NCBI GenBank assembly: GCA_002633005.1 | Contig: NMRA01000068.1 | Location: 160,453-224,452, forward strand | Source: Phoronis australis | Taxonomy: Eukaryota > Animalia > Phoronida | DNA: 64,000 nucleotides | Direction: 5' to 3' | Shown here: one piece after another, positions 6,301 to 55,500 of the stretch | How the letters are laid out: each line of letters begins with the position of its first letter | How positions within the stretch are numbered: the stretch's first letter is position 1 | The notes under the pieces: generated by a model | Told to the model about the DNA's origin: nothing | The model's input: only the letters and a program-made list of their open reading frames with translations | The model's database searches: none | Made by a program: the position numbers and the translations under genes

Positions 6301-7407
6301 TTTTTTTGTAGCATTTATTATTGATGTGCTCAATCCATTATGGATAATATTTTCATTATTTCTTTCACCTGCTTTGTTGAGTTGTTGGCAAGACTTCTTT
6401 ATTTCATTGCTTATAACTTTTGCAACACATTTTTAGTATAAATATGGTTAAGCCATCGATGGTAGTATTTCAATGATTAACATCAGACTTGCTGGTTCAT
6501 TTAATTCACCTCTTGAATGACTGCCGGTATGGATGATTGGGCATCATTGTAAGGTATGTGCTAGTATGGATGAAATACTGACTACATTGTAGGTTGGCCA
6601 TCCTCATATCGTAGATGCCAGTATGGGTGAAATACTGACTACATTGTAGGTTGGCCATCATCATGTTGTATTTGCTAGTATGGATGAAATACTGACTACA
6701 TTGTAGGTTGGCCATCATCATATTGTATATTCTAGTATGGATGAAATACTGACTACATTGTAGGTTGGTCATCATCATATCGTAGATGCCAGTATGGATG
6801 AAGAGTCCTGTTGCCCAGTCAGGTAATACTCTTTATGTCATGATCTTGTGAACTCGTGTGTAATTTGCTAGTTTGACTAGCATTATCACGGTCACCATTT
6901 ATTTGATGGCTTCACCCAATGGTAATGTAGAAATTTCTGTCTGTATATTGCAATTTTTGCTATTAAGTTTCTCCAGTACAGAGCTTTGTGAAATTTGGCA
7001 AACAAGTTTATGTGAAAGAAATGACAACACCTGCCCAGTTTCAGATCAATTCAGCCATTTTTGTTATTTTCGTGTTTTTTGGCATTTGGCACGTGTGCTT
7101 ACTTGCAAGCTGCTTATTGTTGAAATGATCTAACACGATTTTTCCTAAACATTTTGTGCATTCATTAATTGCATTAAATTTATGTTAACTGTGTTTCAGT
7201 TTAATACTTGGAGTTTGTCAAGATGGAAAGATAACGATCACAAAACTGCACGGCTCTGGTAGCTTAGATCCCAGGAGTATTTCGGAAATGTACGAGACAG
7301 GAAAGACTGTTGGAATACATCTTAATTCTGTGCTGTTACAAAAACTCATCGAAGAAGATAAATTAAAAGATACAAGATCTAAAACTGGGTTTTTGGCATC
7401 AAGTTGA
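302..7407 (+). CDS. EXOSC7: Exosome complex component RRP42 (5'-partial, 7 coding exons visible)
   Basis: Exons read with GT-AG boundaries and consistent phase: 302-403 (DNLRSDGRSCEDYRPVELETDVV..GSARVRL), 651-745 (NTDVLVGIKA..EGRLEFFVDC), 1288-1447 (SANATPAFEGRGG..CWLLYVDIV), 5101-5171 (LLECGGNLFDAVSLAVKAAL), 5573-5696 (IPNV..ELSDDPFDCKRLSVDNAP), 6764-6822 (VGHHHIVDASMDEESC), 7200-7407 (..GSLDPRSISEMYETGK..KTGFLASS*). Matches remembered RRP42 sequence throughout; AATAAA at 7559-7564. Confidence 0.95.
938..1085. repeat. About 40-bp intronic tandem repeat
   Basis: TAGCTCTGCATATCGCCACCAG..GAGTTT, about 4 copies. Confidence 0.75.
4283..4847. mobile_element. PIF/Harbinger-like MITE
   Basis: About 40-bp TIR GGGCTGTTCCAG..CTGGAACAGCCC with TAA on both sides; a partial second copy ends at 17378. 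Confidence 0.8.
5310..5501 (-). mobile_element. Penelope-like element fragment (GIY-YIG endonuclease C-terminus)
   Basis: AKILGKERNWHAQKIKESIKIRIQRPLLNQDCG resembles the end of Penelope ORFs; lies in an EXOSC7 intron. Confidence 0.7.
6527..6802 (+). repeat. 57-bp tandem repeat spanning an EXOSC7 splice acceptor
   Basis: Acceptor-like TTGTAG|GTTGG ending at 6592, 6649, 6706 and 6763; the last is the real exon start. Confidence 0.9.
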
Positions 7408-31500: not shown

Positions 31501-34500
31501 AATTCAAACGTTTTCAATCTACAAAGTGGGCACTTTTGCCGTCTTTCCGGGGAATCTTGAAGTTAGGAGGGCAAATATTGCCCATTTGGGACACACTCTG
31601 ACCTTGACTAAGATTTTTCACTGTCCTAAATTGGAAAACTTTTCCTGTAACCTTAAAAAGATACTGGCAGCATTCATACTAAAAAACTACACTACCACAA
31701 AATTATGCCCTGGAATATTCTACTTGCAACTTCAATGCAATGCTTTTATCATTACCGATAACTAAGACCAATACTTACCACCTCAGTGAAGTTAAAATCA
31801 TCATTGAAATCTTCATGCTTTCTAGTATTAGCACGTTTCTTCTTTCGTTTTACTGGCAACGGCTGGAAAGATAGTAGACCAGTTAGCTAACAATGAATGA
31901 CTTGTCGTCATTCATACAGTGTAAGGCACCCGGACACTTGCAGGATTAAGCAATGCACATAGCACGGAAATCATTTTTTTGGGATTGAGTCAGAGTGAAA
32001 TGCATGAACTGTGCGGGAGTGAACGCTAAATCGCAGAATTTTGAAGTTACGTTAAAAATTTGGCACACATTGATTTGTGAGTCAAGCGTGTATTGTTCGT
32101 GAACAAGTCATGAGGTGTGCCGTCAATGCTCATCACTTCGCGTCATGGTATCAATGTTCACATCCAGGCCCTGATAAAGGCATGCACACTACACAGCATT
32201 TTGTGTGTAACAACATGCCACTCTGCTCTATTTCTGTGGCAAACAGTGCCGACATTATTTACAAAAAGTGCGCAGATACAACGTAAACACGAACCCTATG
32301 AACTGGCACATATGGCCACAACAAACAGCGGTGCCAGTGCATGCCAAACATTGTGCAAGCATCAGGATGCCTCTATTACAACCTACTCTTTCCCAGTGCT
32401 TTTCATTTATGAACAGCTAAGGAAGCAACATTAAGACACTCCGATTAGCTGATGCCCAGAAATGCACCAGAATACAGCTCTATCTATTGAGAAATGCACT
32501 TGCGGCATGCTACTGACCAACAACAAGATTGAGGTTAAACTAAAGAACTGAGTACAGGTTCATGCTTCTAACAATGTAATAAGGCATCAAACAACATAAC
32601 AAAACAGCTCACAAAACTACAGTGAAAAATCACCCTGACAAGTCTTGAACCCATGACCTCTTTCTTCAAAGCAATCGGCCAAAGATCAATTGCCCTTAGG
32701 GGGCACCGAACATTCATATGTTACATCATCCAAAATTTCTACTTTTCAAATCCCCCCCTCCCCGGTGCAGGTTGCTGCCAACCGCTGCTAATTTAAGCTT
32801 TCAGTGCAGTGATAGACTGAAGATTAGTTCCACCCTATCACTTTATTAATCTCGACCGTATGTTCACAAGTCAACTCAAACAGAACGTCAGATGTAATGT
32901 CTGTGCTATGCTCCAGAGGAGGCAGTGTGGCCTGGTTGATAAGTGCCCACTTTCTCATTACTCGAAGTCGTAGGTTCAAGTCCCACCAGGTCACACTGCT
33001 AAACCCTTGAGCCAGGTTTCTAGCTCCTCAGCTCGGTTTTAACCATATATTAATAAAGCATAAAACTATTTCCAGGTGATCAGTGCAATGGGCCCACATG
33101 CGAGGCCTGCGCACGTCTGGTACAATGTGTATCAGACAGCCTGCAATTATTTTTTTTATATGCTCCAGCCAGTGAAGCGAAGCCTTGATGTATGATGAAC
33201 TTTTAAGACACTTGGAGCAACTGTTAATTCAATAATCTGCTGTCTTTATAGCTAGCTCTCTGTTGACTAACACTGTAACTGACAATTCTTTTTACAGCAA
33301 CTCGACTACAATTTAACCGTAAATTTCAACTCTTAACTGTCACTAATCTGTCACGATCTGTGTATGTGTCTAATACTCATAAACGCTCTCTGTTGGATAG
33401 TCGACACGTCCCAATAGAGTTTATCCCTGACAACTTAGGTGAGGAGGGGTTTGCATTAATTATATGTAATCCCGAGTTGGCGGATGTCTCGTGTATGGAA
33501 AACTGTTTTCAAATCTCCATAGATAGGGATGATCAAACCCCTTGTGTTGCGAGAGTATTGTCGATAGTTAAGGATACTTTGATTGCAAGCAGAGGGAGGA
33601 CACAAATCTGACTTTCTTATTTGACTGGCTAGATAATGGTGTTGAACCTTCACAATTCCGCTTATTTATCGCCAGCGCTACGGCCAAAACCTATTGGCTC
33701 AATAGGGAGCGGTTTGTTGTGTCTAATAACTTATTATATTGGAAGGCTACAGATGTGGAAAATACTCTAAAATTAGCAGATATTATAAAGCATGGTCATG
33801 ACTTACCCTCAGCAGGTCATCATTGACCGTACCAAAGCAAAGTTAAAAAATAAGTATTATTGGCGTGGTGTGGCCACTAGTGTTAAATCTTATATTGAAA
33901 CATGCCGGCTGTAATTTAAATAAGCAAGGTAGAGGCCGCCATGGTAAGTTTCCCTTAACCACATTTCATGAAGGGCTACCCATGGAACGTGTCCATCAAG
34001 ATTTCTTGGGTCCACTTCCTGTATCATATCAGGGCAACGAGTATATCCTCATGATGATAGACCAGTTTACCAAGTGGGTGGAGTGTGTAGCCCTCCCGTC
34101 GCAGATGGCAGAGGTCACGGTGAACACTGCAGTGGGCCAGTTCTTTTGTAGACTTGGGTTACCATTGCAAGTGTTTACCGATCAGGGACAAAATTTTGAA
34201 AGTCACGTGTTGCGTTACATCTGTTCCCTTCTAAAAATTCAGAAAACAAGAACGACTGCATATAGGCCCTCTTCAAATGGACAATGTGAGCATTTCAATC
34301 GAACCCTGATGGATGCAATACGTTGTTATGTCAGTCGTTTCCAAACTGATTGGGATATGTATTTACCCCAGATCGCTGGTGTTATCCGTTCTTGTGTTAA
34401 TCGTTACACTGGCTTTACAGCTAATAAAATGATGCTGGGTCGGGAAATAATTCAGCCAGTAGACCTCATGTATCTACCGCCCTTACAGGATGCTGAGGAC

Positions 34501-37500
34501 CCAATAGGTTATGTAAACCGGCTCAGTAAAGCGATTACTCAGACTCACGAGATAGCTAGAGGAACATTGCAGACTACCCAAGCTATTATGAAACGTGATT
34601 ACGATGTGTCTATGGTCAGACGTTCATATAAAGTTGGAGATTTAGTCTATGTCCTTGATTCAGCTACTGTCAAGGGGAAGTGTAAGAAACTATTACCCCC
34701 TTGGAAAGGGCCGGCCATTGTTCTCGAGGTCAATACTCATCATCTTTTCCGAATTAGACACAAGAATTTTGTGTCGGTAGTCAATCATGACCGTCTAAAA
34801 CTCTGTAAGGATAGGTTTCGAGACCTGCCAATCTGGCTTAAGAGAATGATCCAGGTAAATTCCACAGTGAACCCGGATAGCCTAGCAGAAGGCACTGAAG
34901 TATACTGTTTTTGTAGGAGACCTGATCATGGCGGGTCAATGATTGCTTGTGACGCATGTGATGAGTGGTATCATGGGGAATGTGTAAGCATTACCACTGA
35001 TGACGCACTGCACATTGACAGGTACATCTGTCCTAGTTGTGAATAACATTCACTTTGCAATATTTCAGATGTTTCGATGTACAAATGTACGACTGAAGAC
35101 AAATCCGGACTTGCCTTGCATTACGGATGTCCCAAGTGAGCGGGAGGACTCTACGCAGCCACCGCCTCAACCAAGAGAGCAAGACCAAACCCCGGTGCAA
35201 GAGGTGTCCACCGTAGCAGTAAATACGGGGGAATCGGACATCCACGAGTCAGTTTTAGACGACGACCCGATCGTAACTGTCACACCCTCACGCCCTATTA
35301 CTGTAAATGTGCCCCTGTCAACCCCCGCAGATTTTCTGGCCAGTCCCCCATCCCATATGATGGTAGATTCTGCGGTAGTCTCAACAGGTTCCCCAACTAC
35401 GCCGCTGGCTTTGATTGGAGAGTCTATTTGGGCCCTTCCCGAATACTCCCACGGAGTGCAGATGGCAGAAGTTTTATTACAGCCCACTGACCAGTATCAG
35501 TGTCCCCTGTGTCCTTTTACCGTTCCCCTCGGTGAAGATGAACATCTATGTAAACATATTTTCACTCGTCATCTTCCACCGTTATTTTCGACTAATCAGG
35601 CTGATGTGGTTGCCAGCCCTCAGCTTCATCGAGAGCGATACGAGTCTCTAGCTTATCTTTTTTCCTTGTTGGAGGGACGTAGCATGAAGGACTCGCTGGA
35701 TCCGCTGGATCTTGCGGGGCCTGAGCCAGCTGCCACGGGTACTACCCCTTGATCAGATGGCGAAGTCAGTTATGACTACCACATTTGACTGGGACCGAGT
35801 TCATAGTTTAACTTTAACACCCAGACTCAACTCGCCAGCCGCTTGCTTCCACTGGTATGTGATCACTCTACTGCTCCAGAAATTACCAGAGAGTGACCGT
35901 GCCCGATGGTTTCTGAGTGCCCATAGTGTGAGGCTTCCTCAGTCCTTCCTTGACTCCTCGGCCAGAGAGGTCGGGCCCTCGTCCTTTACAACCCCCAGGC
36001 CTCAGACCTCTACTTTAGCCCTTTCACCCCCCAAAAGATCTCGGACCTATGCCCAGGTTGCCTCCTGCACTGAGGCTCAACCTGTAGGGAGGAGGGGAAT
36101 GTTGTAATCGGCAACATCATTGGCCCTTTGTTTTTCCTGTGGTGTCTTGTGATTGGTGTTCCACATATGTCCCTTAAATAAGTCATTGGCGCCACTGTCA
36201 GATGGGTTTTTTCATGTTTGTGCAGCTTGGCGTCAACTAGGACAGACTTAACCATTCTCAAAAGAAAGTACTCTTCTCGTGCCTAACTAGTGAACCTGTA
36301 GGAATACAACATACGCATAAGCGTCGCGTTTCAACGGCCATTGTTGTGAATGTTGGTTTGTATGGTCTCGTCTTTTGTGTTGTCTCGTGTGTTCGTGTTT
36401 GTTCGGGGATTTCCGTGAGTGGCCGGATGTTGGGAGATCTAGAATTAGCACGTGACTGGGGAATGATGGGAGCTCTGGTCCTGTGACATGCAGGACGTCT
36501 GCGTTTGGCTCGCAAGATTAAGTGTGTATTCAAGGTTCCATATGAGTAAAGGTAAGCTGCACGCGAACCTGTATTGAATTACAACATTTGGCGTAGTCGG
36601 CTACGTGCAGTTTCCACCTTTGCACTGAGTGGCAATTTAAATTTTCGCAAATTATTTTACTCTTGTCATTCGGTACCACCCGTGTCGTAACAGGTTGGTA
36701 ACTGAAAACGTGTGTTCAGTTGTTAAGTTTTTTCATCTCCGCCTGAATTAAATATTTGGTGGTCAGCTCTATGTCATATTTATTTTTTGTGTTATTTGGT
36801 ATTGTTTTCAAGTTCAGTCTTTTCAGACCTGCATTTAATTAGTGCCACAACCTTTGTGGTACCATAACATGGCGTCCAAGATTCTAATCAATTCTTGTGA
36901 CGCTACATCACTGTTAGACCTTCCGGGTATGACTACTGATGTTGCTGCTGCAGTTATCGACTTCAGGGCAGTATCAGCGATTACTCCGGATAATGTAACT
37001 AAAATACATTCTGCTTGGAAGCCGACCAAAATGATGCAGAAACATATAGACTTCTCCATCCCGTCTGGTCTGCCGGAAGATTTGGTGAAAGTTGCAGAAG
37101 TGGTCGACAATTATGGTAAGCAAACACCGTCGAAAATTGTTTCAGCTCCTGCTTTTTTTCCAAAATTAGCAGCTAAGTTTACCCCGTCCAAGGCCAGTAT
37201 TGCTAGTGGTGGTGCTTATGAGAAAACAACCTCATCGCCGCATTTTAGCACATGGTCTAAGCCGTAGGGGTCATCAACTTATTGCCTACAACGTGCTCCA
37301 CGCAACCTAACTTTCAGTGGCAAACTAAGCACATGGGAAAATTTCTTGTGGAAGTTTGAAAATGTAGCCAAGGATAACTGTTGGTCTAGTCAGAAGTGTC
37401 GCACTGAATTAGGTATGTGCTTAGAAGGAGATGCTTCTCGTTGGTTCGCCAACCATATTAGGTCTTTTCCAGATGCTTCTTACAAGCAAATCATCAAAGA

Positions 37501-40500
37501 TATGATATATCGCTTTGGTGCAAATATCGAGTGTAATGAAGTACACCAGCTTAGATTCCAGTCAGCCAAACAAGCTCCTGATGAGTTGCTTGAGCAACGG
37601 GCTGACCGTTTAACCAGCTTATTCTTATTAGCTTTTCCAGATGCTAGGGACTCTGACAAAGCTCAGGCTGTCCTTCGTTTCTGTTTGGGTTTGAGGGATA
37701 AAGATGTTGCTCAGTGGACAATAAATAGTAAATCGGAGTCAGTCATAGAGGCTTTGAATGCCACACGATGGTTTTCAACCACCAAAGACCTTATGACACC
37801 GTCAAGACCGACCAAAGCTGTTTCTTTCTGTAGAGAAACCTTTTCAGACGAAGGTGAGGAAGAAGTTTCGGTTCGTCAGTTAAGTAAGAAACCCACTCTT
37901 AAGTTCACTCCTTGTGGCTCTTTAGAGTCTCGTTTAGATGTTCTTGAGGGTAGGTGTAATGACTTAGATGCATCAGTTTCTTTCCTTAAGACTGATAACG
38001 CTAAGCTTCATAAGAAGATAGACGGGTTGAAATCTGACCTGTCTGAATCTCATGCTGAAGTATCAAGCAATTTTAGTAAGTTGTTTGCAATGCTACAGAC
38101 ACAGTCGCGAAGCAACCTTCTCCGCCTTCACCAAGAGCTTCACCAGATTCATCTCCTGGAAGATCCTCTAATCTTCCCAGGTGTTTCAGGTGCGGTAAGT
38201 TGGGGCATTACCAGTCGAGTTGTAGGAGTTCTCCAGTGGCGGCTCGACGTATGTTCCTCAGTGACGGAGATTTAAACAAGTAGGGACTGGGGGACAAGGT
38301 CTAACCCCAGTTCGTACCAAGTCCAAAGACCTCCCTGATAGCAAGAAAATAGTTGGTCTGTTGGGTTATATGAAGAAACACATGCGTAATTCTTCAATTG
38401 CAGTTCAGTTACTAGTTCAGTCGTTAAAACTAAGACTGCTGAATCGTTTCCTCAGACCGCTAATGAGTTCTCTGTGACTTCAGTTGAAGATGATAACATG
38501 GTATCTAATCCAGTCCATAGCATTGAAGTTCCAGACTTATCAGCTGTTAATATTAGATCTGACTCATTAATCATTCAGACTGTTGCAGGTACTGTTTCAC
38601 AGAATGTCCCTCCAACTCCAAGGGGGATGCCTCAACCTGAAATCATTCCAGATGCGACAATGGGTGGGAACATCTGTGTCTCTCCTGTAGTTTCAGTTGG
38701 TGAGTCCGTTCCAGAGACCGTAAAAATTAAGAAGAGTGCATCGGGAAGTATGTACTACTTACCTGTAACAATTAATGCTACCTTAATCGATGCTGTTATC
38801 GACTGTGGAGCAGATAGTACCATTATCTCTCATCGATTGTTTAAGCTGCTAGAAGGTGTGTCTTTCTCACATTACATTGATGTGCATACGGCTGGTGAAG
38901 ACCTCTCTATGAAAGGTTTTCGGACACATCCTGTCACTGTGTCGATCAGTGACCAGAGTTACAAATCTTCGATAGTTGTGGCTAACATTAATGATGATTG
39001 TCTTCTTAGTCTTGATTTAATGAAGCAGTTAAATGTAGTAATTGATATGAAGTCGGATTCCATAACGTTCGCTAATGAGACGTTAGTTATGAATTATGGA
39101 GTTCCTTCCAAGTACCAGCCCACAGTTTGACTTTCCAAAAGTATTATTATTCCTGCAAATACAGTTAAGCGTGTGGAGTGCATTGATGTTCCAATTTGTG
39201 TTCCAACAGTAATATTTGAACCAAGCTTTACCGTGGATCCTAGGGTAATGATACCTCGTTCACTACTTAACACCGTTACCTCCCCAGTTTTATACATGTT
39301 TAATTCTTCGGAGCATAGTGTCAGGTCGAAAACTGGTTCAACATTGGGCTATTTAGATTGCATAGAAGAGTGTGAAGTGGACTCATTGGATCTGGCATCT
39401 GATGGAAGAAGCAGTACAGTCGTCAAGCAATTGTCTGCCGGTTCCAGTATGACTTCTGAAGGTACAAGGCCATTGGTGGCATTACCCGAAAAGGTAGACG
39501 ATTTATATAATAAGTCAAAAAATTTATTGACTGAAGCACAATCAAAGTTGCATCAGTTATTGCGAAATTATGCAGACGTTTTTGCAACGGACAACCTAGA
39601 TCTTGGTAACTTTACTGCAGTTGACCACGCGATTGACACAGGCGATGCTCAACCTATCAAAATGGCCATGCGACGGACACCAAGTTGTTTCGTGGCAGAA
39701 GAGGAGGGTCACCTTAACAAAATGCTTAAAGCTGGTGTCATTGTTCCTTCATCTAGTGAATGGGCCGCAACTCCTGTTCTGCTTCGTAAGAAAACAAGAC
39801 GGGTCAGTTCGTTACTGCATTGATTATAGGAAACTGAATGTCACTAGAAAAGATTCATGGCCTTTACCTCTCATTGATGAGTGTATTGACTTACTGTCTG
39901 GTAACAAGTGGTTCAGTAAGCTAGATGCCAATTCTGCATATTGGCAAGTTAAAATACATGAGGAAGACCGGAAAAAAAACGGCTTTTATAACCAAGTATG
40001 GGTTATTTGAGTTCAAATCCATGCCATTTGGACTCTGTGGTGCGCCTTCTACATTTTCAAGAGCAATGAGTTTAGTTCTTAGAGGTTTAAATTGGCACAC
40101 ATTTCTTGCATTCCTCGTTGATATCTTAGTACTGGGGTCAACCTTTGACGAGCACATTGCGAACCTGGAGGAAGTTTTTCAGAGATTCCGGAAGTTTCGA
40201 CTCAAATTGAAACCTAAAAAATGCCTCCTCTTCCAGCAACGGGTTGAGTTCTTAGGGAGATGGGTAGGACCATGTGGCTTGGAGATGGGGGATGAAAAAA
40301 AAAACATCGAAAAAGTTAAAAATTGGCCGGTTCCTCGTAGTAAGAAGCAATGTCAGAGCTTCCTTGGGTTTGCAAACTATCACAGGATCTTCATTAAAGA
40401 TTTTGCTGAGATTGCAGTTCCCTTATACAAAGTCACTGGAGCTTCTCTTTTCGTATGGTCAGATGAACAGCAGGTGGCATTTGACAAGTTGAAAGAAGCG

Positions 40501-43500
40501 CTAACATCACCTTCAGTTCTGACTTTGCCGAATTGCTCGGATGAATTTGTGCTAGATTGTGATGTGTCCGACCTGGCAATTGGAGCCAGTCTGTATCAGG
40601 TCTAAAATGGCATAGAACGCGTAATATCTTATGCTAGTTTTGCCCTGGTGGATGAGCATAAGCGTTATTGTACCACGTGTAAGGAATTGCTGGCTGTCGT
40701 TCGTTTTACACACCATTATAGGCACTATCTACTCGGATGACAATTTCGTGTTCGTACCGATCACAACAGCCTCACATGGTTAATGAACTTCAAATCCCCT
40801 AGTGGTCAAATTGCTCCTTGGCTATTGCAGCTACAATTTCCTGGGATGAAGATTGAATACCGTCCGGGCGCAAAACACGTGAACGCAGATGCGCTCTCGC
40901 GTATCCCTGTGGACACGTGAAACAATTATACCTTGGGTGTTCAGCCAAGCGATCCTTGTGGTGGTTGCAGTACGTGCTGGAAATCACATAACGACCAGCA
41001 CAAGTTTTCATCTGAGGTGAACGATTCAACGTCACTTGCATTCTTCCCCAAGGTAGACAAATGTGTTGGCACTAGGCAAGTGACTACGAATCCCAACTCC
41101 AACCCTAGAACAGTAACTAAGTCACTTTTTCCGTGTGACCTTGAAGAGACAGATTTGGCACTGTCCATTACAGCTTCAGATTGTGAGGATAATGTAAAGT
41201 TTGATCTTAAGCCTGATGGTTGTTTTATTTACAACAGTACAACACCTCTAAGTGTTCATTTGAATGTTTTGAATATTTCAGCTAAACAGGTTGCAGATCC
41301 TGATCTTTCTTTCATTATTAATTGGTTCAATAATAGTATAGTGCCATCTGATCATGATTTATTTCTAGCCAGCCCAGCTGCCAAGTTCTACTGGATTAAC
41401 AAAGACTGTTTTCAACGTCGGGATGATATTGTCTACTGGAAACGTCCAGAAGATAATAAGCTGTTAACAGTAGTTCCTGCTGATTTGAAAGGGGCTGTAC
41501 TAGAAATGTGTCATGTTATTCCTTCAGCAGCCCACCAAGGTATTGCTCGTACCAAACTCAAGATCAAGAGTAAGCACTTTTGGTATGGGTTGACCAAAGA
41601 TGTGCAGCTGTTCATCGCATCGTGTTCCGCATGTAACAAGAATAAGCAGGGAACAAGACATGGTCGGTCTCCTATGATTCGTTTTCATGCTGGAGCACCG
41701 ATGGAGCGGGTACACATCGACTTTCTTGGTCCACTACCTGCATCTCCACGTGGTAACCAACATGTGTTGATGATAGTGGATCAATTTACTAAGTGGGTGG
41801 AATGCATTCCCCTACCTTCTCAAACTACAGAAGTATCGGCTACAGCTGTCATTAATGAATTCTTTGCTCGTTTCGGATATCCCTTCCAGATTTTCTCTGA
41901 TCAAGGGAGAAATTTCGAAAGCAATTTATTCCGTGCTGAGTGTGAGCTTTTGCACATCCATAAGGCACATACAACTCCGTATAGACCCTCTGCAAATGGT
42001 CAAGTTGAGCGTTACAATAGAACCCTTACGGATGCGGTAAGATGCTATGTAACTTCCAGATGGATTGGGATCTATACATTCCTCAAATCGCTCACGCGAT
42101 CCGTTCATCAGTAAATCGCCATACAGGTTTGACACCAAATATGATGATGTTGGGTCGTGAGGTCACTCAGCCGGTAGATCTCATGTTTCCTCCACCGTCT
42201 GGTGCTGACAATGACTCTCCGTCAGGGTATGTAGTTAAACTTCGCGCGGCTATTTCAAAAGCACATGAAACTGCACGTAGTGTTCTACAAACTAGTCAAT
42301 CTTCCATGAAGAAAGATTATGACCCATCTGTTTTTAAACATGTTTTTAAGGCAGGCGATCTGGTGTTTATCTTAGACTCTGCTTCAACTAAGGGCGTGTG
42401 TAAAAAATTGTCGTCTCCCTGGAGGGGACCTGGTATTATTATTGAAGTTCTAACACCAGCTCTGTACAGAGTTCGTGTGAAGAATACTGTCTCAGTTATT
42501 CACCATGATCGTATTAAACTGTGTAAAACTCGTCATGCTGACCTACCTGCTTGGCTTCAGCGGATAATGAATGTAGTTAACCAGATTCCTAACACTGACG
42601 ATCAGTTGTATTGTGTGTGTCGTCAGCCTGACCATGGTGGCCTCATGATCCAGTGTGACTCTTGTGACGATTGGTTTCATGGGGAATGTGTTAGTGTTAC
42701 GGCTGATGATGCATGTGATATGGATGATTACTGGTGTCCTCGGTGCAAGCTCTAACTTTTCTTTTTGTTGCAGAAGTTGTGTTCTCTTGTACGGATGTCC
42801 GGCTAAAAACCAACATGGACCTTTCACGGGTGACCTTCTCCGAAGGGGTCCCATGACGTGCAACAGTCTTCTGCTGTGTCTGATAAGACACCTGCGTCTT
42901 CGGAACCTATGGATGCGAGTGATGCTTCTGGCACCCCTGCCGTGTCAGAGGATGTTACTCCATGTGATCATTCCAGTGATGTCTCATTAACGTCACCTGC
43001 TCCAGTTCACAAGAAACCAATCAAGCCAGTTCCTAAAAAAGGGAACCGTGAACGAGGAAAGTTCGCTTGTCCCCTCTGTGGTTTAGTCGCCACGGGTGAA
43101 ATTCTACGGGAGCACAGCTTGACAAACCACCTACCATCAGTGTTCAATGTTGACTCTGTTCAGCGCTTGTCATCTTCCACTCTTCAGTGTGCACGGTTTC
43201 AGGCACTGAAGTCCATTTTCTTGCAAATTGAGGGAAGGGAACTTCAGCTTTATGAAGATATTCTAGACCTTGCAGGCCTGGCAATGAGAAGCGTGCTCCA
43301 CGTTCCTCCTGTAACCATGGAAGACGAACTTCAAGTAACGATCTCCTGTAAAGTTCTGGGTGGCCTACACCTTCAGGCCCTTTTGTTCTCTGTGGGAGGT
43401 TGATCAACCTGAGTCTCTGCATGCACTGGTTCGTAGTGTTGCAGTTGATGGCGAGAGTCCCCGAGCCGAATCGCTCTGTGTGGGCATTGTCTTTTGACAA

Positions 43501-46500
43501 CGGACCATGTGGCATTCCACCTGCACCTATGCCATCCAGCTTTCAGAGGCTCATAGTTTCGTCGATATCGTTGGGACCTCTCCAGTTGGTACCTCCTCAA
43601 CCAGTGTCATCGTCGGCATCTTCAACCCCCACCTTGGAAGGGGCAATCGACTCGCATTTTTATATGTATCGTCTAACATCGGCTTATCGGTCCAAAGGTA
43701 ACGTCTGCGGAAGCTGTATGCTGTCCGTTGCAGATCTTCTAGCAACCAAGCTCCACAGAGTACCTTACCTTCTAGTCAAGCTGTTGGGCGGTGTTCTTGT
43801 ATTTTGTGACCCAACCGAGTACTCCTGTCATCCACTCAAGGAGTACCTAAAAGCTCTTCCCCGGGGGTTCAAGGCAGTCATTGGTGTGCATCCGAAACAG
43901 GAATCCAACTTTTCGGGTAATGCTAGGATTACCTTGTTCCGTCTCTTGCGGGAATCTGAAGTTGCCGGTCTGGGGGAGATCCGGTTTGAACAAGCCTTGG
44001 GAAAGGAAAAGCATCAGCGCCGGTTTGTGGAAGGCCTGATTTCGGAGTTCGCCAGCCTTGGACGTCGTCATAAGAGTGTTCGCGACAAGGTGGTGGTTCT
44101 TCACATCAGGGCAGCGTCACCATGCTCAAATTATGAGTGGGGTTTCCACACTGCTTTCGACATTCTTAGAGAGCAGCTATCTAGATTCCAAAGGATCCAT
44201 CTTCACACCTTCACTGATGATTCCGTGGCAGTGAGTAACTTCCACCGTGAGTTCCCGAACTGCTACTTCGGGTTCTCTGGTATTTGTAACACATTTACTC
44301 GCTGGCAAGTCCAAGCGTTACGGGAGGTGCCCGAAGACCGTCTTCTGTTGGAGACTGATTCGCCTCACCTGTCCTTGCGCGAGCGACCTAACTATCCACA
44401 GTTTATTGGAGAAGTTGCTGAAGTAGCTGCCAAACATCGTGACGTTTCGGTGGCTCAGATCCTCCAGCAGACCACTCGGAACGCTCAGCGCCTCTACAGA
44501 CTTTAGATCTGGGATTAGTAGCATAGTAGTGTATTTACATTAAATTTATATTTCGTTTCAGTGAAAATTATTAGACTGTTCCAGGGATGCTCGTTCACGG
44601 GTAGGTCTGTTCAGCTTCTGTTATATGATCATTAAAAAAAAGAAATTTTGAGAATCCTACTATGCTACCTTGTTGTTTATTGTTGTTCGTTACTATATGT
44701 TTTGTGTTTGTTACTTTTTCATATGGTAGTTTATTTTTCTAAATAGTATATTTTTCTAGTAAACTTTATAACATCTTTTTCTAGTCAACAGATATTTCAT
44801 TTTTTTGTAAATTGTGACCAGTATTTTTCAAATAGCCCCAGTCACGTACTTCTGTGAAGAATTTAGTTTTTTTAATGTAAATCCGGCCATTTAAAATTTA
44901 GTTCATAGTATTTTTCCTAGGGTAATTCATAATCTGTTATTTCTAGTATGTTAGATGTTGGTCAATTCTTCTTGTTTCTTCATTTAAGGGGGGGGGGGTA
45001 AAGGTTGAGTAGTATGTCTTTTTTCAGTAAGGTTTTTGTAATATTTCTCTATTTAGGGAGGGGAGGAATGTTGTGAATGTTGGTTTGTACGGTATCGTCT
45101 TTTGTGTTGTCTCGTGTGTTCGTGTTTGTTCGGGGATTTCCGTGAGTGGCCAGATGTTGGGAGATCTAGAATTAGCACGCGACTGGGGAGCTCCGTCTTC
45201 GTCTGGTCCTGCGACATGCAGGACGTCTGCGTTTGGCTCGCAAGATTAAGTGTGTATTCAAGCTTCCATATGAGTAAAGGTAAGCTGCACGCAAACCTGT
45301 ATTGAATTACAACACCATTTTCTTGTTAACTGCTCATCCAAGTTTTCTGATTTTTGCACCATTTGATTTCTCACACCAAGGACTTTTCAAAAATGTATGA
45401 CACATGGGTATTGTAAAAAAAATTAAAAAACGTCCTTCCTACTAGTTAGTGAACCTGTAGTAATGCAACACGCGCAGGAATAATGTTGTAATCGGCAACA
45501 TCATTGGCCCTTTGTTTTTCCTGTGGCGTCTTGTGATTGGTCTGTTTTTGTGTGTTCCCCGTATGTTCCCTATATAAGTCGTTGGCGCCACTGTCAGATG
45601 TTTTTTTTTTCAAGAACCGGCAAGACAAGTCATCCATGGTTGTCCCGCTTGGCGTCAACTGACCGACTTATCTCTTCATAGAAGAAAGCACTCTTGTGCC
45701 TAACTAGTGAACCTGTAGGAATACAACATTCAGACAAGTCATCCATGGTTGTCCCGCTTGGCATCAACTGACCGACTTATTTCTTCATAGAAGTAAGTAC
45801 TCTTGTGAACCTGTAGGAATACAACATTTGGCGTAGTCGGCACTAGTTAGGAGTATCATAAGAGTATTTGACCGACTAGTTCAGACGGCTTTTACCTGTC
45901 CAGGGCTTTTTCTTTCGTCCGGGGGGGAAAGTTGGAGAATTTAGTTGGTGCCGTGCTAACAGGTGGTTAGTACGGTAGCCAAGGGGTTCTTGGTCTTTAG
46001 GTAGAGTTGGTTTTAGGTTGTTTGGGCCTTATTTTTGGGTTTTTGAGGTTTATTTTTGGGTTTTTGGTATTTTTGGGTTTAGTTGCTGGTTCGAAGTGGG
46101 TGTGGTTCCCTTTTGACTTAAGTCACGTGGTAGGCAGTGTTTTGGTTAAAAACACCGATTCATTCCCTTACCTTTAGCCCTTCTGTACCGGATATATATT
46201 GGCCGTTGATAGTTAACCATGTCAGTAGGTTTCAAAATTCCTATTAACTACTGCCGTGAGTCAGACTTGTTAGATTTGCCGGGAGTTGACGAAGATATCG
46301 TCCTGCAAATAGTTGACTTCCGGGAGAGGTGTCCTATCAGTCGTCACAATATTTACCAGATATCTGACAATTGGATAGTGACCAGCGTGGTGACTGACCG
46401 GGTGGATTATTCCTTAACCCCCAGTTCAGGTTCCCGAAACTCTGATTTGCCGGCGGGGTTACCTCAAGTGGCTGAATAGGTCCCCTAGTCCTGAATTGGG

Positions 46501-49500
46501 TAGAACCACTAGGTACCGAGGGGGCTCCCGATACCAAGTCGATGAGGGTAGACGAGACAGTGGCATAAGTCCTGGCGTCCTCCTCCTAGTAGACGAAGAG
46601 GGTATTCGGGAAACATAGGAGGTAGGTGTGACAGCGGTCTGGATCCCGACACTTTTACTTCTCCTGTTCGCCCAAGGGGGTACTGGGAAAATAGAGAGGG
46701 AAGGCGCGACAGAGGCGGAAGTCCCGGCCCAAGAAATGCCAGGGAGTATAAAGTGGATTCGCATGCTCCTCAACATTTAGTTCTCAAGGGCTTGCGAAAT
46801 ACCTGCAAAGATTTCCACTGGAAGTTTAGCCGTTTTGCTAGGGAAAACTTCTGGTCTGGGGATAACTGTTTAGCAGAGCTAAGTCTTTGCAGTGAAGGGG
46901 ATGCACTCTGCATTCTTTGTAATTTTACAGAAAGTCGGCCAGAGGCATTGTATGACGAAGTAGTGGAAGCAATGAGGAAACGTTTTGGAGTTGCTTCGGG
47001 GGTGCCAGGAGTAGACCAACTACAATTTCACTCCACATCCCGAAAACAGGCCGAGTCCTTACATCAATGGGCTGACAGGCTGAATCATCTGTATTTTTCG
47101 GCCTTTCCAAACCCCTCAGATGGTGACTGCCATCAAGCCATACTCCGGTTTTGTTTGGGGTTAAGTGATCAGGATATAGGCAAGCAGGTGTTAAATGATC
47201 GTCCCGAATCCATAGACCAAGCACTGGTTCTAGCCGTGTGGATCTCTACGACGAAGGGCCTAATGCCATCGCGTAAGAGTGTTACCTTTAGGGGAGATGA
47301 ACTGAGCGAGGATGTTAGTAGGCTACGTCTCGTCTCTAGTCAAAAAAGGTCACCCATTAGGTTTTCGCCAATTTCGGGTCGCCAATCCCCACCTGATTCC
47401 CCCAACAGTTCTCCCAGGTCTAGCAACTTGGCAGAAAGGTACAGAGTGTTAGAGTCACGGTTAGATTTTTTGACAGAGGATAATAAAGCTCTGCATAAAC
47501 AAATGGACAATCTGTCCAAAGAAATGAACCAAAATTTCTCTAAAGTTGAAGGTCGTTTTTCTAAAATAGACACCAATTTAGAGAAAATGCTGGGTTTATT
47601 AGCCTCGGGCCGGGCGTCTCCTAAAAAATCTCCGTCCAGATCACCCAGCAATTCTCCCCGAAGAGTCGGAGAGTGTTTCAAGTGTGGGGAGACTGGTCAT
47701 TTTAAACATCCATGCCCCAATAAACCATCGGCCAATGTCAGACTAGCCTCAACGTCTCCAGATAGTTTAAACTGGAACGGACTGAAGGACTAGGTCTAAA
47801 TGCAGTCCATGATTCCCAATCAGGCCTGCCCAAAGACTATTCAACTCTGATTGGTTTGGTGGGAGGGATCAAAAAGCAGTTAAAACGTGCAAATAAAAAA
47901 TCTAAGAAAACGATTCGTTCCACGGGGGTTGGGACAGATTCTGAAGATTCTTTCTCACTAGCAGATTCCGACAGTGATTCTAATCCGGGTTCTCTTGCTA
48001 GTAAGGATACGTTGACTGTAGATCCACCTATCAAGTCAGATGTAGATCGAGCGCCGGAGGTAGTAAACATATGTAAACTATCTTCAAGTCGTACGTATTA
48101 TATTACCATAGAGTTGAAGGGTTCGAGGATAAATAGTATCCTGGATAGTGGTGCCGACAGTACTGTAATTTCTACCAGGGTATCTAAATTTCTCTCGGGT
48201 GTCCAAGCCGTGCACGATGTAAAGGTGACAACGGCCGCAGAAGGTCTGGCTCTTTGGGGGTTCAGAACCAATAACATTCCCATTACTATTAATTCCAAAA
48301 CATATCGAACCTCAGTGGTAGTTTCGGATATTCAGGATGATTGCCTCTTGGGGTTAGATATCATGAAACAATTGGGATGTGTTCTGAACATGAAAGAGGA
48401 TAAACTGACTATTGAGGGGAGAACAATTCCAATGGAATACGGTATCCCATCCACATATCTTCCTCGAGTGGTAGTGAACTCAAATGTTTTAATTCCTGCC
48501 AATACGGTGAAGAGGTTAAGTGGGATTGAATTTCCAAAGATTTCCCCCATGGTTATGTTTGATCCGTCTCAATCTTTAGATCCACGTATTTCAATCCCCC
48601 GCTCAATACATGACCCCCAATCCTGTTCTTCCCTTTTTGTTTTCAATTCATCGGAACATGGGTTGAGATTAACAGGAGGGACTATCTTAGGTGTAGTGGA
48701 ACCCGTGGAATCTGAAGGGGTAAAAGATACTCAGGTTCGGGAACAGTGCTCAGTTAAGGTAGCTAAGGTAAAGGAAACTCCTTGGGGTGTTGAGACACTG
48801 TCGGAGAGATTACCAAGGCGAACTCCTGGGAATGTTAATGCACTGTCGGGAGGTTTACCAGAAAAGCTGACTTCGCTGTTTGACCAATCTTCAATTCATT
48901 TAAGTGAGGGGGAAAAGTCACAGTTGAAGCTATTGTTAGAATTTGAAGATTTGTTCGCTGCCAGTGATTTGGATCTAGGAAATTTTACGGCAGTAGAGCA
49001 TGTCATAGACACCGGGACAGCAAAATCTATTAAAATGGGTATGCGCCGGACGCCAACCTGTTTTGTGCAGAAAGAGGAGGATAACCTAAAGAAAATGTTA
49101 AATGCAAGAGTAATTGTCCCCTCTATGAGTGACTGGGCCGCAGCACCTGTGTTAATCCGCAAGGCTGACGGGACAGTGCGTTACTGTATTGACTACAGGG
49201 CGTTAAATAGTGTTACCCAAAAAGATGCATGGCCTTTACCATTAATTGAAGAATGTATAGACCTTCTTGCTGGCAATGTTTGGTTTAGTAAGTTAGATGC
49301 AAACTTATTGGCAAATCAAAATCAGTGAGGAGGACCGTAAAAAAAACTGTATTCATTACAAAATATGGTTTGTATGAGTTTAGCTCTATGCCTTTTGATT
49401 TATGTGGAGCTCCTAGTACATTTTCTCGGGCCATGAGTCTTGTTTTAAGAGGTTTGAACTGGAACACGGTATTGGCATTTCTAGACAACATATTAGTGTT

Positions 49501-52500
49501 GGGTACCAGTTTTGAGGACCACCGGTCTAATCTTACAGGCATTCTTGCTCGTTTTCAGGAGTTCGGCCCGAGATTGAAACCCAGAAAGTGTGCCCTGTTC
49601 CAAAAGAAAGTAGAATTTCTGGGTAGGACGGTGGGTCCGGAAGGGTTAGAGATGTGAAATGACAACATTAAGAAAGTCCAAGAATGGCCTATTCCCTACA
49701 GTAAGAAACAGTGTCAAAGTTTCTTGGGTTTCGCAAATTACCATAGGCTATTCATCAAAGATTTTGCAAAATTAGCTGTATCTCTTTATGAGATTACAGG
49801 GTCGAAGAAAACCTTTCAGTGGGACGATGCACAACAGAATGCTTTCGATCAATTAAAGGTAGCTCTAACATCACCACCTGTTTTAGCCTTACCGAACAAA
49901 AATGACGAATTTATTCTTGATTGTGACGTCTCTGATAAGGCTATTGGCTGTTGTCTTTCCCAAGTCCAGAACGGATTGGAGCGAGTTATCTCGTACTCCA
50001 GCTTCGCTTTAGTGGACGAACAAAAACGTTATTGTACTACTCGAAAGGAGCTGCTGGCTGTTGTACGATTTACACACCAGTTCAGACATTACCTCTTGGG
50101 TAGGAAATTTAAAGTACGGACGGATCACAGTAGTTTGAGATGGCTGTTAAACTTTAAATCTCCTTCGGGACAATTAGCTCGTTGGATATTACAGTTACAG
50201 CAGTTTTCGGGTATGGAAATAATATACCGTCCCGGAGTTAAACATATCAATGCTGATGCTCTGTCACGTATTCCTTCGTCCTCCTGCCCTGCTTACAAGC
50301 TAGGGGTAGAACTCAAAGACCTTCCTTGTGGGGGTTGTCCCACTTGTTGCAAATCTCATAATGAATGGTATAATTTCGTACAGGAAGTTGATGACACTCT
50401 TCCTCTTGCACAACGCCCCAAGGCAGCCATGGCTGACAAAAGTACCAGTACCCGTGCGCGATCTGTGTATGTGTCCGATACGCACAAACACTCGCTATCA
50501 AATACGCTGTGCTAACAACGTCATTGCGGAGGATAGTGGCTGCCACCATATATACACAAGCAGTACGCGGATGGAGTTTAAGGCTATACAACGTGCCCTA
50601 ACCAAGCTGTCACTCCTAGACCTGGAGAATCACACCATTATCTTTGCCACCGATTCCATGGCAGTGTTGATGAAAGTTCAATCTGGAAACCTCCCAGCCA
50701 ACTGGGGTGTCTTCCGATCACGCCACCCTCATCATGTGGTGATCTGGTCTTTCGTACTTGGCCACGCCGGTGTCTTGATTAATGAGTGTGCAGATTACCT
50801 CGCTGGCTCATGCACCACCAACCAACCCCTCTACTTATATTCGGCTGACGTTAAGCTGCTGGCTCGCAAACGCAACCTCGAGCAGACTGCATCCCAGCTG
50901 GCTGAGTTCAATGATGGCAGCCGCCTGCTCGAAGCTGGTATTATTTATGGCCATGCTGCGAAGAGTCACAAGAAGGGCCGTGCCCGAGTGCTGTCTAATC
51001 AAATGCTTACAGGCAACGTCAGCCCTGGAGTTTTGCGCCTTCTGCTGTCACGGGGATGGTCTGGGGAGGGGATTAATGCACCAGCATATCCCCAATGATC
51101 CTGTCCGGAACAGGTATTATTACAGGTATTATTACAAACACTCGCTGTTGGATAGTCAAAACGTCCCAGAAGAGTTTATCCCTGACAACTTTGGAGAGGA
51201 GGGGTTTGCATTAACTATATGTAATCCCGAGTTGACGGATGTCCGTTGTATGGAAGACTGTTTTCTAATCTCCATAGATAGGGATGATCGAAACCCTTGT
51301 TTTGCGAGAGCATTGTCGATAGAGGATGAAACAGACTTTGACCGCCAACAGAGAGAGGACACAAAACTGACTTTCCCATTTGACTGGTTAGATAATGGTG
51401 TTGAACCTTCACAATTCCGCTTGTTTATCGCCAGCGCTACGGCCAAAAACTATTGGCTCAATAGGGAGTGGTTTGTTGTGTCGAATAATTTATTATATTG
51501 GAAGGCTCCAGATGAGGAAGATATTCTAAAATTAGTAGTGCCGGAGTCTTGCAAATCAGATATTATAAAGCAATGTCATGACTTACCCTACGCAGGTCAC
51601 CAGGGAATTGACCGTACCAAAGCGAAGTTGAAAGCTAAGTATTATTGGTGTGGTATCGCCGCGAGTGTAAAATCTTATATTGAAACATGTGCTGGATGTA
51701 ATTTAAATAAACAAGGTATAGGCCGCCATGGTAAGTTTCCCTTAATTACATTCCATGCAGGGGTGCCCATGGAACGCGTCCATTTAGATTTCCTGGGTCC
51801 ACTCCCTGTATCCGATCAGGGCAATGAATATATCCTCATGATGGTAGACCAGTTCACCAAGTGGGTGGAATGTGTAGCCCTCCCGTCGCAGATGGCAGAG
51901 GCCACGGCGAACGCTGCAGTGGGCCAGTTCTACCCTCAGTCCTTCCTGGACTCCTCGTCCAGAGAGGTCGGGCCATCGTCCTTTACAACCCCCAGGCCTC
52001 AGACCTCTACTTTAGCCCCTTCACCCCCCAAAAGATCTTGGACCTATGCCCAGGTTGCCTCCTGCACTGAGGCTCAATCTATACCACTCCATCCTGTACC
52101 GCCCAAGTCCCCAGTGGAGCGGAAACAGGTTCGTCCAAAGCGGTTGGCACCGGCAACCACCTCCTCGGCGAAATTGCCCTCTTTGTATGGTCCACCGTCA
52201 ACCGCCAACCTGCAGCCTGCTGCATCAGCCCCAAAACCAGAGACAGTCGATTCGCATTTCCACCTAGATCAGCTGACCTTTGCTTGCCAACGTTTTTCCC
52301 CTGACTTGGCAGGCCGGCTGCTTACCATTCCTGAAATCACTAATATGACGGCAATGCTCCCTTGTCCCTCAAAAAATCCCGTCCATTTAACAGGGGGCAT
52401 AGCGGTATTTTGTGATCCTATTCATTACAAGTTTGTGGAGAAATCCACTGAGGCGTTCCGTCGGGCTAGAAGGCTGCAATTGGCATCCATCCAAAAAACA

Positions 52501-55500
52501 CCAAGTCTTACAATCCGGCCATGGAGAAGGAAATTTTCAGGCTCCCTCAGTTGCCCAATGTTGTTGCACTAGGTGAATTGGTATTGGAAGAAGGCCACGG
52601 TAGCGCTGAAGTACAGCAGCAAGTGGTCGTGTCGCTGCTGCGCGCTCTTGCCCGCTTCCAGACGGTTCACGGCACTCGAGTGCTTGTAATGCACTTTCGC
52701 GCCCGGGAGTCTACTTCACCCTTTCACTCTGGTCATCAGTACATGAAACGGTTGCTGAGTGACGTCTTGCCCAGAGCCCAACCAATCCAACTCCATTGTT
52801 TTTCTAGTAACCCTCAGGAGGTGCGATCATGGATGAAGGCTTTCCCTAATGTCTATTTCGGTTTTGCTGCCATTGCTTGCCATTTTTCCTCCCCCCAATC
52901 CAAAGCTCTGGCGGCCGTGCCCCTCAATCGGCTTCTATTGGAGACCGATTCCTTCCATTTAGCAACGTCCTCTCGACCTATGGCCCCATATTTCATCGGG
53001 GAAGTGGCCTGGAAGATAGCACGCCTGCGTCACTGTAATGCTGACTATACTTGTTGGAGCACTCGGCCAAGAACGCTGGTGTTTTATACAGATTGCAAGT
53101 CCGGAAAGGGTCTCTAGTGAGTATTTTTACCACTAGGTGTCTGCTCTCCAGTCCGGGGGGGGTGGGTGGTTCCCCATAAGGTTCCTATTTATTATTCATT
53201 TCATGTGTTCAAGGGTGCTGGCTCTTTGAACTTCTATATTATTTGATGGTACTTCTGTTCTTAACCCATATGTATTATGCTCTCATTCTGGGGGAACTGT
53301 CCTTGTGCTAGTAACATAATGGAGTTCCTCCTTTTTTTGGAGGGGGGAGAAGGGTCAAATTTTTCGGGCATTTTTTGATAAATTGGCAATGATGTTTCCC
53401 GGGTGGGTCCCACGCTTTTTAGGGAGGAGGGGAATGTTGTAATCGGCAACATCATTGGCCCTTTGTTTTTCCTGTGGCGTCTTGTGATTGGTCTGGCTTT
53501 GTGTGTTCCCCATATGTCCCATATATAAGTCGTTGGCGCCACTGTCGGATGAGTTTTTTTTCAAGAACCGGCAAGTCGTCCATGGTTGTCCCGCTTGGTG
53601 TCAACTGACAGACTTATTCCTTCATAAAAGTAAGTACTCTTGTGCCTAACTAGTGAACCTGTTGGAATACACATTCGTTCTCAATGAATTGCGACAAATG
53701 CTGAAGCCAATGTTCAGCTCACCACAGAGAATTCCGAAGTCATGAAACAATGTCAAAAGACCTTTAAAATAAAGAATAATATGTCTAACGTGGGTGCTGT
53801 GTCTTATGACCGGCTACAGTTTACATGGTAGGTGTCACAATGCACCATGTAGCCTAGGGTTCCATAAAATTGCGTGAAGCTGAAAAAACGACAAAGTAGA
53901 AACAGGCTCTCTTTTATTATAATAACTTGTCCAATCAAAAAGAATAATTGCATTTTGGAAACTCAGCGAGACATATTTAAAGAGAAAGTCAACGTTTTTT
54001 ATCAACAAAAAATAAATTTTAATTTCCACCATGTTTACTGAGTGAAGCCAAATCTCAAATCATTTACGAGACCTCATTGGCGTGCTTCTTGAAAAAGAAG
54101 TTTCAAGAGATATTTTAGTGAATTTGTGATTTATAATTTGTAATACACAAAAAACGGCAATAGCATTATTTTTTTAAACCTTTGCCTTATCTGAAATTGG
54201 CTGTGTGGCACTGCTTTTCAAGAAGCGCAGTGGAATTTTTTTGGAATCATTTACGAGACGTGCATAAATTCAACAATAGTGCGTTGATAAGGAAGATGTG
54301 GAAACTCAAATAACTCTACAAAGCTATGGTGATGTGTGAAATCATTGCAGTTTTGAAAGTTTTTGGTGAACATTTATGAAAAAATTGGCATTTGAAATCG
54401 GTTGCTTATCATTTACGAGCCTTCATTTACGGGACGACAATTTTATAATTAGGTCAAGTCCAATTAATTTCACCTACTATTGGCATGTGTGACATGAATA
54501 TAGGTCAATTTTTCAAGAACGAGCACGTGCGCTTCAGCTGACATCGATACTGTCTGAAAATATTCGCTAAAGAAGTCAACAGAACTTTTGGGTAAGTTTT
54601 CAGTAATGTCACTTTTATAATTCACATGTTTTAGGGTCGTTATTAACGTACTAGAAGAAGTGACGAAATACTTCCTGTGAAACATACTTTGATTAGAATT
54701 TGCTTGACATTGGTCGTACTAAATTCTTGTAAAAAATTGTCACGTAAATGATATCCAGTGTCCCGTAAGTGATTTGTTCTATTTTCACTCAAATTCATTT
54801 CATCTTTAAGTAGTAATTAAATTATTATCTGTGACGATACATAACTTAATGCAGCTGACCTTGCAAAAATAATGACATCTTTTATTTTATTTAATACCTA
54901 TTAATTAGAGTTTGTCACTTTGGTTTGCGTTGCGGAGTGCCAAAATACAAGTCTCAGCGGATGAAGGAATAGTCTAGAGAGCCCGTAAAAAGGCACAACT
55001 CGGTCACGAATGGCTTAGAAGAGAAAGTGAACGAGTTACGGGTATTTCGTACCAGTGTCAAAACTGACAGAAGTACAAAAAGTCGGAAGACAAGAAACCA
55101 ACAGAGTGTTAGCTGAGACCAAAGAAGTCAATATATAAGTGAAGCAAGGCAATTTTGTTTGTAAATATGAAGGTCGCCGATATCTCGGACAAGTCGTGGA
55201 CACAGATGATGTCGACTAGCCTGTGGAGGTCAACTTCTTGCAGCCGTCCATTAAAATGAGTGGATTGTTTATGTGGCCAGCCGAAGGAAACAAGATTTGG
55301 CTACGGAAAGATGACATCCTGAATCTCGTCCTGGACCTCGCACCAACTGGGAAAGCTGCAGAGTGTTCAAGGCGTCAGATGAATTGCTGGACTACCTTGA
55401 TTTTTCCTAATGACGTTTAAAGCCCAGTTAAAATTGCCGTTAAAAGGTTTTAACCTTAACAGTCTTTAGCCCAATTGTCAACGCTTAAGTTGTCATTTAC

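Follow-up and report, generated by a model that had tools for sequence, protein, structure and literature searches.

A TatD-type nuclease gene retained behind pol in a clade of animal Ty3/gypsy retrotransposons, with decayed copies in Phoronis australis

We analysed a 64,000-nucleotide stretch of the Phoronis australis genome (contig NMRA01000068.1, positions 160,453 to 224,452; hereafter the window), in which three decayed Ty3/gypsy retrotransposon copies (A, B and C) are arranged in tandem. These copies are decayed members of a clade of long terminal repeat (LTR) elements carrying a third open reading frame (ORF3) in the env position, which encodes a C2H2-type finger, a helical HW domain and a TatD nuclease domain. 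This ORF3 is real, ancient and under purifying selection, a third gene with a TatD of the HxH type that an animal Ty3/gypsy clade has retained behind pol. We regard the architecture, the intact relatives, the co-descent with pol, the selection, the conserved metal-site residues and the predicted TatD fold as practically certain. Copy B is a full-length, yet decayed, Ty3/gypsy element, and the features of the three copies are as follows.

36342..45314, plus strand: copy B, whole element, with LTRs, primer-binding site (PBS), gag, pol, ORF3 and polypurine tract (PPT)
36342..36586, plus strand: copy B 5' LTR, with a donor-like site AAG/GTAAGC at 36551/36552
36589..36601, plus strand: copy B PBS, 13 nt, which we take to match tRNA-Ser
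36869..38380, plus strand: copy B gag, broken, with Retrotrans_gag and a weak N-terminal HhH match (Pfam)
38390..42755, plus strand: copy B pol, with stops and frameshifts, in the order protease (PR), reverse transcriptase (RT), RNase H (RH), integrase (IN) and PHD, the PHD at about 42612-42746
42756..42773, plus strand: copy B likely ORF3 splice acceptor, a pyrimidine tract and CAG right behind the pol stop
42779..44506, plus strand: copy B ORF3 with two frame changes, comprising an RLKT motif, linker, basic patch, finger, HW domain, linker and TatD
43068..43470, plus strand: copy B C2H2-type finger (43068-43139) and helical HW domain (HW motif 43424-43429), split by a frame change
43640..44506, plus strand: copy B TatD domain, 288 open codons, second His of HxH replaced
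45055..45068, plus strand: copy B PPT
45069..45314, plus strand: copy B 3' LTR, with a donor-like site at 45279
33354..36311, plus strand: copy A, 5'-truncated, with IN-PHD, ORF3, PPT and LTR (36100-36311)
35067-35068, plus strand: copy A acceptor, with ORF3 starting from the ATG at 35069, finger and HW kept, TatD deleted
45484..53670, plus strand: copy C, same family as A, with LTRs, gag and a pol holding a 650-bp insertion
52243..53114, plus strand: copy C TatD domain, frameshifted, HxH retained

The LTRs of copy B have TG...CA ends and are identical at 229 of 245 aligned bases. The element is flanked by a 4-bp target duplication (CCAT), and an empty-site copy of its flanking repeat, at 57749-57949, carries the 4-bp target once. 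Pfam searches recovered the pol order PR-RT-RH-IN, with PHD ending pol in copies A and B. A first-pass annotation of this DNA had placed a TatD nuclease ORF3 between pol and the PPT/3' LTR of copy B, and this was borne out: TatD_DNase was matched in the copy B frame 43352-44503 (E 1.8e-27) and in copy C at 52470-53114 (E 3.2e-19), TatD being the only Pfam match in ORF3, with none to an envelope. An AlphaFold model of the copy B domain is a TIM barrel (pLDDT 89.7), for which YcfH was the top match in a structure search (E 1.6e-13, TM 0.74). The motif set of copy B, described as complete in that annotation, falls one residue short, with six of the seven metal-site residues retained.

Copies A and C preserve complementary parts of one second family. 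As proposed earlier, the LTRs of this family are dissimilar to those of copy B, to which blastn found no match. The copy B finger and HW motif match the ORF3 of copy A (tblastn E 5e-9 and 2e-8), and the TatD domains of B and C share 35% identity, compared with 69% for pol. The claim of a diverged ORF3 homologue in this family holds for TatD in copy C and for finger and HW in copy A, each in a partial gene. ORF3 is incomplete or interrupted in all three window copies: that of B changes frame twice, A is without TatD, and C has a frameshifted TatD and a deletion, between the IN core and the ORF3 linker, that removed PHD, finger and HW. No target duplication was seen around copy C. The insertion in its pol (50484-51134) is a very high-copy sequence that other copies do not have, and a 597-aa frame at 50779-52569 was rejected as a gene because its start lies within this insertion.

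Intact relatives were found in metagenomes. A scan of metagenome contigs retained 80 of 508 loci, 4 of them family-type; L002 is an intact element with gag, a 1415-aa pol with terminal PHD and a 712-aa ORF3, L006 is frameshifted and L003 is too short to tell. Genome contigs scanned for a TatD motif yielded 14 matches, of which 8 lay within two bacterial symbiont metagenome-assembled genomes (MAGs) recorded as Sedimenticola sp., in which 122 integrase matches of animal-type retroelements were counted. Evidently, both bacterial MAGs carry animal retroelement contigs, and the ORF3 products in them are labelled as bacterial "TatD family hydrolase". While the two MAGs were found via the TatD motif, 11 contigs were picked by integrase similarity (12 integrase+PHD rows, 54-60% identity), and in all 11 with a full integrase+PHD match a finger-HW-TatD ORF3 lay downstream on the same strand, the location that the first-pass annotation had suggested looking for in relatives. 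In total, 35 integrase-matching contigs and 5 picked by TatD were mapped, adding intact gag/pol/ORF3 elements L156-L160, L163 and L166. ORF3 was found in the same position in 16 elements, with frames open in most. Viral contigs were also searched, and a related element was not found in them.

In a tree of the RT-RH-IN region from 39 unnamed elements, 15 TatD-bearing elements, window copies B and C included, formed one clade with an SH-aLRT support of 100. In a neighbouring clade, L171 has a TatD ORF3 behind a PHD-less pol, so that HhH, PHD and TatD need not occur together. Of the element type formerly defined by HhH-Gag, PHD-integrase and TatD, the PHD at the end of pol stands, and the HhH match is weak: its E value is 0.005 in the window, below the Pfam cut-off, and it recurs in four relatives at 2.5e-5 to 0.005. 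L171, L146, L148 and L190 have ORF3s of a second type, compact at ~500 aa and made up of finger, HW and TatD, and L167, a complete relative of L171, has no ORF3. Other gypsy lineages of the same bin (L172, L174, L177, L179, L184 and L185) encode ORF3s that are unnamed and of other kinds, 250-550 aa long, and in several of these a C2H2-type finger is present.

Among the 22 open ORF3s compared (231 pairs), 8 pairs exceeded 55% identity. TatD dN/dS was 0.14-0.17 in the five pairs with measurable dS, which are partly non-independent, and the other three were saturated, with dN around 0.31; the intact copies are thus not evolving neutrally. TatD and pol trees of 15 elements had 7 of 8 supported splits in common and none in conflict, and the correlation of their distances (Mantel r 0.76) was equalled in 0 of 5000 permutations. 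Moreover, 4 of 5 differences in the HW motif between expressed relatives and copy B were synonymous. The decay of the window copies would fit a fragment of a host gene that is carried along passively, or a gene that lies next to the element by chance. The dN/dS values and the agreement of the TatD and pol trees refute such passive carriage, and the constant position in 16 elements, mostly with open frames, and a TatD clade separate from host TATDN2 leave it next to no probability. In this way, the earlier proposal of a stable, selected module of the lineage is supported by intact elements, a single pol clade, congruent trees and low dN/dS.

Word-index searches of protein databases returned 22 and 6 proteins. 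When 1.84 billion cluster representatives were searched with a profile, 1055 matched at E 1e-30, some of them perhaps cellular TatDs, and the best 150 of these were analysed (all E <= 1.3e-74, query rows among them). The finger-HW domain was present in 113 of these best 150 homologues, including 97 of the 101 with at least 450 aa, and in 0 of 123 TATDN2 or bacterial proteins. Named homologues, known as protein records, belong to sea urchins (Strongylocentrotus and Lytechinus), abalone (Haliotis) and bivalves (Tegillarca, Ostrea and Pecten). Sea urchin and abalone "YcfH/YabD-like hydrolases", as well as the "TatD family hydrolases" of the bacterial MAGs, belong to the ORF3 family, which flags these labels as annotation errors. 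The catalytic residues are altered in five family members (P0027, P0028, P0060, P0099 and P0132), and in two of these the finger-HW domain occurs twice; the P0060 cluster includes an Ostrea edulis protein, and P0132 is the Lytechinus "mucin-17-like" protein. From their sequences, these five are possible domesticated host genes.

All seven catalytic-site residues were retained in 118 of the 136 homologues covering them, the HxH type being family-wide, and the GE and ETD glutamates were kept in 129 and 132 of the 136, respectively. The 18 homologues with altered residues would suit a TatD domain that binds nucleic acid or metal as a scaffold, with no catalysis. This is very improbable in view of the complete site in the other 118, at only ~30-35% overall identity, and of the 22 out of 22 element-borne open frames that keep HxH and the GE glutamate. 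The ORF3 product is, with good probability, an active nuclease, as predicted from these residues.

The upstream part of ORF3 was also modelled with confidence (pLDDT 93.3) as a finger-HW domain of ~150 residues. Searches of this model against PDB and BFVD gave nothing at E 0.001, and the best VIA Z was 3.6; such failed searches of a predicted model neither show nor exclude a new fold. Ahead of the finger, at least four K/R among 12 residues were present in 47 of 87 cases, against 343 of 3600 (9.5%) in the background.

A quickly computed tree of 90 TatD domains separates the element-borne domains and the family proteins, by a branch with a support of 99, from 18 TATDN2 and 35 bacterial-type rows. 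The element TatDs formed their own branch in two trees (SH-aLRT 98-99). The nearest sampled branch was made up of TATDN2 and one metagenome row, TATDN1, TATDN3 and YjjV being left out; this, with the shared splits described above, is the outcome of the phylogenetic comparison recommended in the first-pass annotation. Free trees put the element TatDs outside animal and fungal TATDN2, and their union with animal TATDN2 was not rejected by the approximately unbiased test (p 0.34). In deer TATDN2, the GE and ETD glutamates are 112 residues apart, the same spacing as between E593 and E705 of the human protein; by this equal spacing the two human residues correspond to the GE and ETD glutamates.

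ORF3 is likely expressed through splicing, from a donor in the LTR upstream of the PBS to the acceptor behind the pol stop, as a separate mRNA that would be without the PBS because the donor lies upstream of it. A pyrimidine tract and YAG within 20 nt ahead of the first open ATG behind the pol stop was present in 11 of 15 elements; among ATGs within pol, which served as the control, the rate was 63 of 791 (8%). Copy B has the same tract as A, but a GTG at the position of A's ATG. Donor-like sites, counted without a chance control, were found 17-57 nt upstream of a PBS-like site in L002, L160, L161 and L166, and in both LTRs of copies B and C. Three RNA runs (X5, X6 and X7), chosen by species label, were read to ~18-19% each. 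In X7, 26 reads exit the LTR at the donor position 45279 into sequence outside the window, and sense depth was 6.5-7.8 over the family-C ORF3 compared with 0-1.4 over gag-pol, assuming the usual library orientation. A second acceptor-like site lies at 36810-36828, just ahead of the gag start of copy B, and splicing from the LTR donor may therefore give access to gag as well. In all three runs, reads skip 2294 pol bases (38738-41033) with non-canonical ends, a skip that was unseen in the DNA contigs compared and is probably due to an expressed, internally deleted relative of B.

TatD proteins are described as 3'-5' exonucleases and AP (apurinic/apyrimidinic) endonucleases, with an HxH motif in Group II (PMC10085689, in part), and human TATDN2 degrades R-loop RNA and cuts hairpin RNA, for which E593 and E705 are required (PMC10711561, in part). 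A role of TatD as a stand-in for a dead RNase H was ruled out, as the elements' own RNase H motifs were present in 8 of 8 long open pol frames checked. By likeness to TATDN2 and other TatDs, the predicted two-metal nuclease would strip RNA off RNA:DNA hybrids and tidy damaged ends where the element's own DNA is being transcribed or integrated, and the basic patch would point to action in the nucleus; both the nuclear location and the hybrid- or end-cleaning role are possible, somewhat short of an even chance. The whole scheme, a nuclear nuclease made from its own message that clears hybrids and damaged ends at the element's DNA, is likewise held tentatively. It is favoured on the basis of the activities of TATDN2, the conserved glutamates, the presence of RNase H and the basic patch.

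Two other roles have to be weighed against it. ORF3 could act in counter-defence, degrading hairpins or hybrids that would otherwise supply piRNA/siRNA silencing or innate nucleic-acid sensors, with the finger-HW domain docking on a host factor. A separate message and the lack of any pol-ORF3 fusion, or of any pol or gag match, among 169 family proteins are more in keeping with an accessory factor than with an enzyme of replication; double-stranded hairpin RNA is among the substrates of TATDN2 (PMC10711561, in part), a TatD-family nuclease has been co-opted in a bacterial anti-phage system (PMC13434339, in part), and ORF3 diverges faster than pol between B and C. However, TatD dN/dS is uniformly low and gives no hint of an arms race in this domain, the host target is not known, and the same enzymology would also fit the nuclear nuclease, so that we consider this role rather doubtful. 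Alternatively, ORF3 packaged in the particle could trim or repair cDNA (primer remnants, AP sites, 3' ends) before integration, as the exonuclease and AP endonuclease activities of TatD proteins (PMC10085689, in part) and the strict co-descent with pol would allow; the separate frame with no pol fusion seen, the RNase H motifs already in pol and a basic patch pointing to nuclear import make this distinctly improbable. A broader scenario, in which an old mollusc/echinoderm Gypsy lineage took a TATDN2-like RNA/hybrid nuclease, fused it to a finger domain of new fold and used it as an anti-silencing factor spliced from the LTR, with altered copies domesticated by hosts and many "YcfH-like" genes of marine invertebrates being these elements, is unlikely.

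Several observations weigh against the preferred scheme of a spliced message for a nuclear nuclease. Regarding expression, no donor-acceptor junction reads were found in the RNA runs, of which ~18-19% was read; family B gave sense reads over gag-pol and an ORF3 depth of 0 to 2 in all three runs; antisense equals sense over the family-C ORF3 in X5 and X6; and the ORF3 excess in X7 could be explained by 3' bias or a truncated copy. As for the role, hybrid removal in reverse transcription is already covered by the RNase H motifs, and the tie to TATDN2 is loose, as it comes from a quick tree of 90 rows with long branches and with TATDN1, TATDN3 and YjjV absent. With respect to the association itself, a cut-short family-type TatD (L007:3509-4171) has no pol match in 3.5 kb upstream, 23 of the 39 gypsy elements in the pol tree are without TatD, some because the contig ends early, and genomic context comes from few sources (the window, two metagenome contigs and two MAGs).

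All three window copies (A by its 3' end) are in the same orientation and no more than ~200 bp away from a single short high-copy repeat (36312-36341 and 45315-45483), the end of which resembles the A/C LTR end; this clustering reflects either a target preference or chance nesting. Elsewhere, the window contains an inverted repeat pair 9 kb apart (2338-2650 and 11576-11883, 78%), tandem arrays of 57, 24 and 49 bp (6514-6802, 9168-9453 and 18549-19430, respectively) and a tRNA-Ala gene at 13781-13855.

No published account of a TatD gene in LTR elements was found in the literature searched, a scope outside which Repbase, GyDB, survey supplements and subscription journals may name the clade. TatD is unmentioned in the main text of an annelid element survey (PMC8220671), as are PHD and ORF in the consulted portion of a mollusc element survey (PMC6238403). 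A squid paper's TatD was rejected as an element gene, since it refers to host TATDN2. A 3'-5' exonuclease ORF3 in the env position is already known (PMC5408684, in part): a nuclease ORF3 as such has precedent in Juno and Vesta, and the TatD version is apparently undescribed. Animal LTR retrotransposons thereby gain a sizeable and conserved accessory gene, of which intact natural copies are available for assay, along with a well-folded 150-residue domain without structural match. As the cellular relatives of this family have known substrates, the role of non-envelope ORF3 enzymes becomes testable.

The env of errantiviruses is made by splicing. The elements described here resemble errantiviruses in their gag-pol-ORF3 layout and in a third gene likely produced from a spliced message, and differ from them in that ORF3 has no envelope match, is predicted to be a soluble nuclease and would be reached from a donor-like site inside the LTR (PMC13524379, in part); TatD and PHD are unmentioned in the main text of that survey. 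Troyka elements have CG...CG termini and a 3-bp target duplication (PMC12440569, in part), compared with TG...CA and 4 bp in copy B, and unlike chromoviruses, copies A and B and L002 end pol with a PHD and have no chromodomain (Pfam).

With TATDN2 and Group II TatDs (PMC10085689 and PMC10711561, in part), the ORF3 domain shares HxH, the GE and ETD acidic residues and the TIM-barrel model, and a CDP motif is common to ORF3 TatD and to cnidarian and fungal TATDN2. Unlike TATDN2, the ORF3 TatD is element-borne and intronless, has ~30% identity to it, forms its own branch and is joined to the finger-HW domain. The closest parallel in layout is found in the bdelloid rotifer LTR retrotransposons Juno and Vesta, which carry in the env position a non-envelope, enzymatic ORF3, a DEDDy 3'-5' exonuclease with intact catalytic residues, in place of the TatD TIM barrel and attached finger-HW domain reported here (PMC5408684, in part). 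According to the same source, the Juno and Vesta ORF3s are family-specific, were gained on two or more occasions and do not depart significantly from neutrality, whereas the TatD ORF3 tracks pol through a deep clade, is under purifying selection and has homologues in two phyla.

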